From NCBI RefSeq assembly GCF_003334335.1, contig NZ_QOWQ01000229.1: a stretch of 273 nt of DNA. One strand, written 5' to 3'. This document shows positions 1 through 273 of the stretch, in pieces; within the stretch, counting starts at the first letter, position 1, and the number at the start of each line of letters is the position of its first letter. Source of the DNA: Escherichia coli. GTDB taxonomy: Bacteria > Pseudomonadota > Gammaproteobacteria > Enterobacterales > Enterobacteriaceae. Position numbers: made by a program.

Positions 1-273
1 CGCAACACAGCAATAAAAATGCGCCGCCTGAACCACCAGGCTATATCTGCCACTCATTGTTGTGAGTGTGGCGATCCCATAGATGAGCGAAGACGCCTGG
101 CCGTTCAGGGTTGTCGGACTTGTGCAAGTTGCCAGGAGGATCTGGAGCTTATCAGTAAACAGAGAGGTTCGAAGTGAGCGAAATTAACTATCAGGAACTG
201 CGTGAAAAGGCAGAGAAAGCAACTAAAGGAAGCTACATCGTAGGGCATACATCTGTTAACCAGCACGGCAATT

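Follow-up and report, generated by a model that had tools for sequence, protein, structure and literature searches.

How should one read a zinc-finger open reading frame (ORF) of 52 codons that begins at position 19 of a 273-nucleotide stretch of Escherichia coli DNA (assembly GCF_003334335.1, contig NZ_QOWQ01000229.1; the whole stretch is called the window here)? The ORF, 19..177 (MRRLNHQAISATHCCECGDPIDERRRLAVQGCRTCASCQEDLELISKQRGSK), has its first Cys at residue 14, leaving 13 residues before the finger; F-plasmid TraR carries 36 (first ligand C37), where the original prediction put roughly 35. That prediction favoured a start at ATG 19, which would yield a minimal TraR-like protein missing most of its N-terminal helix, and offered as its alternative a start 5' of the window, since no stop interrupts the frame as far back as base 1 (R N T A I K M R R L). 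Its sequence facts hold, and so does its alternative; the ATG 19 start and the minimal-protein reading do not. Almost certainly, the window contains the 3' four-fifths of a 73-codon orf73 gene of a lambdoid prophage, in which ATG 19 is the internal Met22. There is nothing unusual about the gene, an allele of a phage gene already known and characterised by experiment; its boundaries, conservation, family membership and fold come from our analysis, and RNA polymerase (RNAP) binding and transcriptional effects from the literature.

Among complete E. coli genomes, megablast found a 100% match to the window in a prophage of SCU-104 and 99.3% matches in O157:H7 Sakai, EDL933 and many other strains; 3236 of 5426 genomes contain a match, at up to 8 places per genome. 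The matching phage records belong to Stx-converting phages (933W, VT2-Sakai, Min27 and others; 99.3% identity for the 933W/Sakai Stx phages) and to lambda-like phages. Coordinates below refer to the window or to the exact-match SCU-104 locus (L001), in which window base 1 is L001 3001. The annotated order around the window is gam, bet, exo, several small ORFs, the TraR/DksA gene and an ead/Ea22-like gene, which is the exo-xis region of the pL operon of a lambdoid E. coli prophage. A conserved block orf60a-orf63-orf61-orf73-ea22 has been described in lambda, Phi24B and 933W (PMC8614690). Here, too, the gene sits between an orf61-type gene and ea22, and its stop overlaps the ea22 GTG (174-176) in a GTGA arrangement that lambda shares and that, on sequence grounds, suggests that orf73 and ea22 are translationally coupled.

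Directly 5' of orf73, the exo-xis block is mosaic, because gene content there differs: the SCU-104 interval between exo and orf73 (L001 1727-2857) contains a DUF1317 gene, a 250-aa hypothetical gene and a 71-aa gene, whereas the same interval in 933W (L002 2213-2857) contains orf60a, orf63 and orf61. Phages of the 933W type have a second place that matches the window (places_in_record 2), which fits the further Orf73 copy (L0141) that PMC8614690 mentions. The annotation of orf73 is uneven across records (L006, L002, L003 and L010). It was left unannotated in the original 933W (AF125520, L002) and lambda (J02459, L003) records, an out-of-frame 53-aa ORF was called in its place in phage Turner (PP925837.1, L006 528-689), and one Stx2a record names the upstream orf61-like gene 'cell division protein ZapA'.

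The true ATG of orf73 lies 45 nt 5' of window base 1 (window coordinate -44, L001 2956). The ORF spans L001 2956..3177 (222 nt, 73 aa; WP_000774248.1 in the RefSeq annotation), an extent also annotated for Sakai ECs_1170 and phage PA4 AKI85990.1, and its product, MADLIDSASEIEELQRNTAIK-MRRLNHQ..., has 21 residues before Met22. Because an in-frame TAA stands two codons 5' of the ATG, the ORF cannot extend further 5', which rules out any start beyond the 73-aa ATG. An in-frame stop is likewise found one or two codons upstream in eight of nine other lambdoid loci, the exception being the divergent phiSTEC1589 (L004), whose frame is open for 40 codons 5' of orf73. The upstream DNA, which the original prediction had proposed to inspect for a start with a ribosome-binding site, contains an AGGGA Shine-Dalgarno (SD)-like element 10 nt before the long-form ATG (anti-SD duplex -4.9 kcal/mol). 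This SD is weak in the window allele; divergent homologues carry canonical ones before the long start (GAAGGAAAGGAAA-ATG, AAGGAG-N7-ATG and CAGGAG-N8-ATG). The preceding annotated gene stops at L001 2857, leaving about 100 nt between it and the orf73 ATG. The window ORF thus appears short because window base 1 falls at codon 16 of orf73 (Table 1).

Table 1. Features of the window, in window coordinates.
Feature	Position	Strand	Remarks
orf73-type gene, codons 16-73 and stop TGA 175-177	1..177	+	73-codon ORF, lambda Orf73/TraR homologue
Codons 16-21 (R N T A I K), part of the N-terminal helix, no 5' untranslated leader	1..18	+	
TAA, out of frame, without coding significance	14..16	+	
ATG, internal Met22 of the 73-aa protein, start codon role rejected	19..21	+	
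C4 zinc-finger codons C35 (58-60), C38 (67-69), C56 (121-123), C59 (130-132)	58..132	+	CxxC-x17-CxxC
GAGAGG Shine-Dalgarno of the ea22-like gene, within the end of orf73	162..167	+	anti-SD duplex -7.2 kcal/mol
ead/Ea22-like gene, first 33 codons, GTG start	174..273	+	L001 3174..3989, 271 aa

Between the orf61-like gene and orf73, we noticed a terminator-like hairpin (L001 2878-2905, window about -122 to -95) of sequence AGGGAGC-TAC-AGGCTCCTT, followed by TTTTATTATT, with a folding energy of -10.2 kcal/mol and a z-score of -3.07. In phiSTEC1589, a different hairpin followed by a T-run (GGAGCTTCGGCTCC-TTTTTT) lies about 60-80 nt 5' of its orf73, an equivalent position despite unrelated flanking sequence. 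The hairpin 5' of orf73 may be an N-antiterminated terminator of the pL operon. It probably differs from lambda tL3, a terminator just 3' of exo that the pKD46 insert (lambda 31088-33241) includes; a literature search on tL3 as the hairpin upstream of orf73 returned vector papers only.

Six independent lines of evidence agree that the N-terminal extension is real coding sequence. The 73-aa form aligns from residues 1-71 to positions 1-72 of the 75 in phrog_54 (88.9 bits, E 3.8e-25), and its residues 3-64 span all 64 positions of TIGR02419 (E 1.1e-14), with a score of 54.8 bits that the NCBI curated cut-off of 59.7 slightly exceeds. Residues 1-64 align to F TraR 1-66. Of the two profiles, the 52-aa form reaches only the C-terminal positions 23-72 and 27-64, respectively, with lower scores. 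When 50,697 phage records were searched by tblastn, 406 of the 578 matching records covered at least 80% of the 73 residues, and among the matches listed most of those with near-full coverage, some of only 35-70% identity, align from query residue 1-5; relatives in that identity range come from phages of Klebsiella, Yersinia, Vibrio, Mannheimia and Pseudomonas.

The lengths of the homologues tell the same story. A search of 5.8 billion protein clusters returned 108 relatives, whose lengths peak at 73 aa (24 clusters) and 72 aa (17 clusters). Most shorter entries bear the label 'partial', and many longer ones run on into unrelated, apparently frameshifted or chimeric sequence. In 35 of the 42 intact homologue clusters, 34 residues precede the first ligand Cys, and 39 of the 42 carry an N-terminal DxxDxA. 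An upstream start exists and homologues align across the whole of the longer N-terminus, which makes the 52-aa form an artefact of the window's edge. In an alignment of 25 sequences that includes F TraR (A1), D6 and A8 are invariant and conservation reaches 90% or more at D3, I5, E10 and E13, so that the part missing from the window is the best-conserved part of the helix.

Comparison with the divergent phiSTEC1589 locus places the boundary of this conservation at the long-form ATG. In the 100 nt 5' of it, 71 sites differ from L001; the 5' flanks are therefore essentially unrelated, and homology starts at the ATG itself. Within codons 1-21, 6 of the codon changes in the same comparison are synonymous and 7 non-synonymous, and the nucleotide differences number 7, 2 and 11 at the first, second and third codon positions. 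On this pattern, the 21 upstream codons evolve as coding sequence.

As judged by its sequence and predicted structure, the 73-aa product is a full-length TraR-family protein. Pfam PF01258 (zf-dskA_traR) matches residues 33-64 (E 1.1e-8), and PGAP names the 73-aa gene a TraR/DksA family transcriptional regulator. Of the finger ligands, C35, C56 and C59 are invariant in A1 and C38 is nearly so. The hallmarks given for Orf73 are DxxDxA, a C4 finger and an acidic C-terminal helix (PMC8614690). The N-terminal motif, M-A-D3-L-I-D6-S-A8, lies entirely 5' of the window; 34 of the 73 residues precede C35, with a model helix at 3-27, where TraR-family proteins have about 70-75 aa and a long N-terminal helix that occupies some 35 residues ahead of the finger. 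R46 and R47, at least 90% conserved and invariant, respectively, align with TraR R48 and R49 (rim helices/beta' Si3 contact), and the C-terminal model helix 57-70 contains the invariant acidic residue E64 (beta Si1 contact).

An AlphaFold2 model built from A1 (mean pLDDT 81.5) consists of these two helices and a zinc-ribbon core. Foldseek ranked TraR in E. coli RNAP complexes first among PDB entries (6N57_M and 5W1S_M; probability 1.00; 67 aligned columns, TM 0.52-0.57), followed by YbiI and then DksA. The rmsd of about 4 A arises because the helix angles differ, as PMC8614690 also states.

The closest characterised relative is lambda Orf73, encoded by a 73-codon ORF, unannotated in J02459, that lies between orf61 and ea22 and overlaps the ea22 GTG by 4 nt. 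The two 73-aa proteins are identical at 71 of 73 positions, the differences being the conservative substitutions I4L and V49A, and share the DxxDxA tip, the C4 finger and the C-terminal helix. Their loci share the position downstream of an orf61-type gene and the 4-nt overlap. The genes between exo and the orf61-like gene differ between the window prophage and lambda, and the Ea22-like protein has 271 aa at the window locus versus 182 aa in lambda.

Purified lambda Orf73 and DksA compete for RNAP, according to Gopalkrishnan et al. 2022 (PMC9239242), and Orf73 inhibits rrnB P1 without ppGpp, with a TraR-like IC50 of about 50 nM, and rpsT P2 as well; D3N or D6N removes most of the rrnB P1 inhibition in vitro. 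The same study reports that pL-driven Orf73 lowers rRNA and rpsT transcription in vivo, that lysogens with D3A+D6A or a deletion of residues 3-58 release 3-4 fold fewer phage, and that orf73 is expressed within 20 min of induction, for which ribosome profiling is cited. Since D3 and D6 precede Met22, the phenotypes described there mean that it is translation from the upstream ATG that matters.

F TraR (5W1S, 6N57, 6PSQ-6PSV) shares the architecture of the window protein, a near-identical length (73 aa in the window protein) and an alignable D3, D6, A8 and CxxC-x17-CxxC, and is the best structural match of our model. The two are only about 32% identical, however, the pre-finger helix is two residues shorter in the window protein (34 versus 36), and TraR belongs to a conjugative tra operon, whereas the window protein is phage-borne in a pL operon. 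F promoters are activated by TraR but, according to PMC9239242, not by lambda Orf73. DksA (1TJL, 5VSW, 7KHI) has the zinc-finger family PF01258 in common with the window protein and, going by PMC9239242, the two would also share their binding site on RNAP and the presentation of acidic DxxDxA residues to the active site. By contrast, DksA has about 151 aa, bears the motif on the tip of a coiled coil of two helices and depends on ppGpp; the window protein has just one helix at its N-terminus and would, by analogy with Orf73 and TraR, be independent of ppGpp. YbiI (2KGO) gave the best sequence match over the zinc-finger part (residues 29-65, E 2.9e-5), but the match stops short of the N-terminal helix, and the protein is longer (a 108-residue construct in 2KGO; 88 positions in the matched model NF008243).

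The original prediction took the TAA at 14-16, which indeed lies in another frame than ATG 19, for the end of an upstream gene. This did not survive inspection: the frame is open for 50 codons, but its only start codons are two TTGs, which stand 14 and 8 codons 5' of the stop, and the true upstream gene has its end at L001 2857. The frame also crosses the terminator-like hairpin and the orf73 start, and none of the L001, Sakai and PA4 records has an annotated gene ending at this TAA. Alternative ORFs in the window, 41..127 (-), 83..187 (+) and 105..266 (-), lie across the conserved coding frames of orf73 and ea22, and the 83..187 frame occurs only in frameshifted database entries. Many database relatives (P0019, P0022, P0043, P0051, P0054, P0057, P0061, P0067, P0073, P0075, P0081 and P0084) switch in or near the zinc finger either to this +1 frame (...VVGLVQVA...) or to unrelated sequence; these are frameshifted or chimeric, through sequencing errors or decaying prophage copies.

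What, then, of ATG 19? As the original prediction had noted, it lacks an SD: the best anti-SD duplex in the preceding 20 nt has an energy of +1.2 kcal/mol. Met occupies position 22 in 17 of the 42 intact homologue clusters, and A, K, H or N replaces it in the other 25; none of the 42 has a full-length homologue that starts at Met22. The exact 52-aa sequence is nonetheless present in public protein collections, on 28 contigs in a collection of 15 billion proteins, which has the 73-aa form on at least 1000. Some of these 52-aa entries are labelled 'partial', and one is non-partial and labelled 'MULTISPECIES'. In all eight places that we inspected, most of them labelled 'partial', the 52-aa gene starts right at a contig end, at base 1 or 2, which speaks for truncation and against a true annotated protein. 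These 52-aa entries were cut short in assembly, as the ORF here was by the window's edge.

The draft contigs concerned (L015-L022) break repeatedly within 1-2 nt of one position, near window base 17-19, which probably marks the end of the sequence common to several co-resident lambdoid prophages. Such breaks have seeded 52-aa 'TraR/DksA' entries in NCBI, one of them without a partial flag.

One could still imagine that the gene makes the 73-aa Orf73 together with a minor, tip-less 52-aa isoform initiated internally at Met22. An A-rich, unstructured context can permit SD-independent initiation, and the sequence before ATG 19 (CAAUAAAAAUG) is A-rich and probably unstructured. In addition, phage Stx1_JNE110649 (StxXX-converting, LC727904.1) has codon 13 of orf73 changed from GAA to TAA (L009 437-439), 24 nt before Met22, leaving MADIIDSASEIE*; reinitiation there is conceivable, and this nonsense allele could be either a natural null or a source of the tip-less product. 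Yet the replacement of Met22 in most clusters reveals no visible selection for an internal start, and the accounts of orf73 drawn on here, PMC9239242 and PMC8614690, do not mention a 52-aa isoform. We rate this isoform as very improbable, because ATG 19 has no SD and Met22 is not conserved, and the further proposal, that a Met22 product made by SD-independent initiation or by reinitiation in E13-stop alleles competes for the RNAP secondary channel, deserves equally little credence. That ATG 19, the first start codon of the frame inside the window, is the true start of a minimal protein that binds RNAP without an active-site-proximal tip has practically no probability left, given the contig-end entries, the missing SD, the poorly kept Met22, 21 upstream codons that form the most conserved part of the helix and evolve under coding constraint, a TAA that ends no gene, and lambda D3 and D6 mutants, altered 5' of Met22, that are null-like in PMC9239242.

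The full-length 73-aa reading suggests how the window's gene may act. Its product comprises an N-terminal helix with the DxxDxA tip (D3, D6 and A8), a C4 zinc-ribbon domain and a C-terminal helix. By analogy with the 97%-identical lambda Orf73 and with F TraR, it would be synthesized early from pL after induction, bind the secondary channel of host RNAP without ppGpp and insert its acidic tip towards the active site. It would thereby inhibit rRNA and ribosomal protein promoters, activate some others and raise phage yield.

The locus holds a caution: a gene cut at the edge of a window or contig can pass for a novel minimal variant. Here, the 21 residues cut off are the functionally essential tip of the protein, and the same truncation has already reached public databases, in the form of 52-aa 'TraR/DksA' entries located at contig ends. 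The interest of orf73, already characterised for lambda and noted for Stx phages, is as a phage factor that would reprogram the host RNA polymerase without ppGpp.
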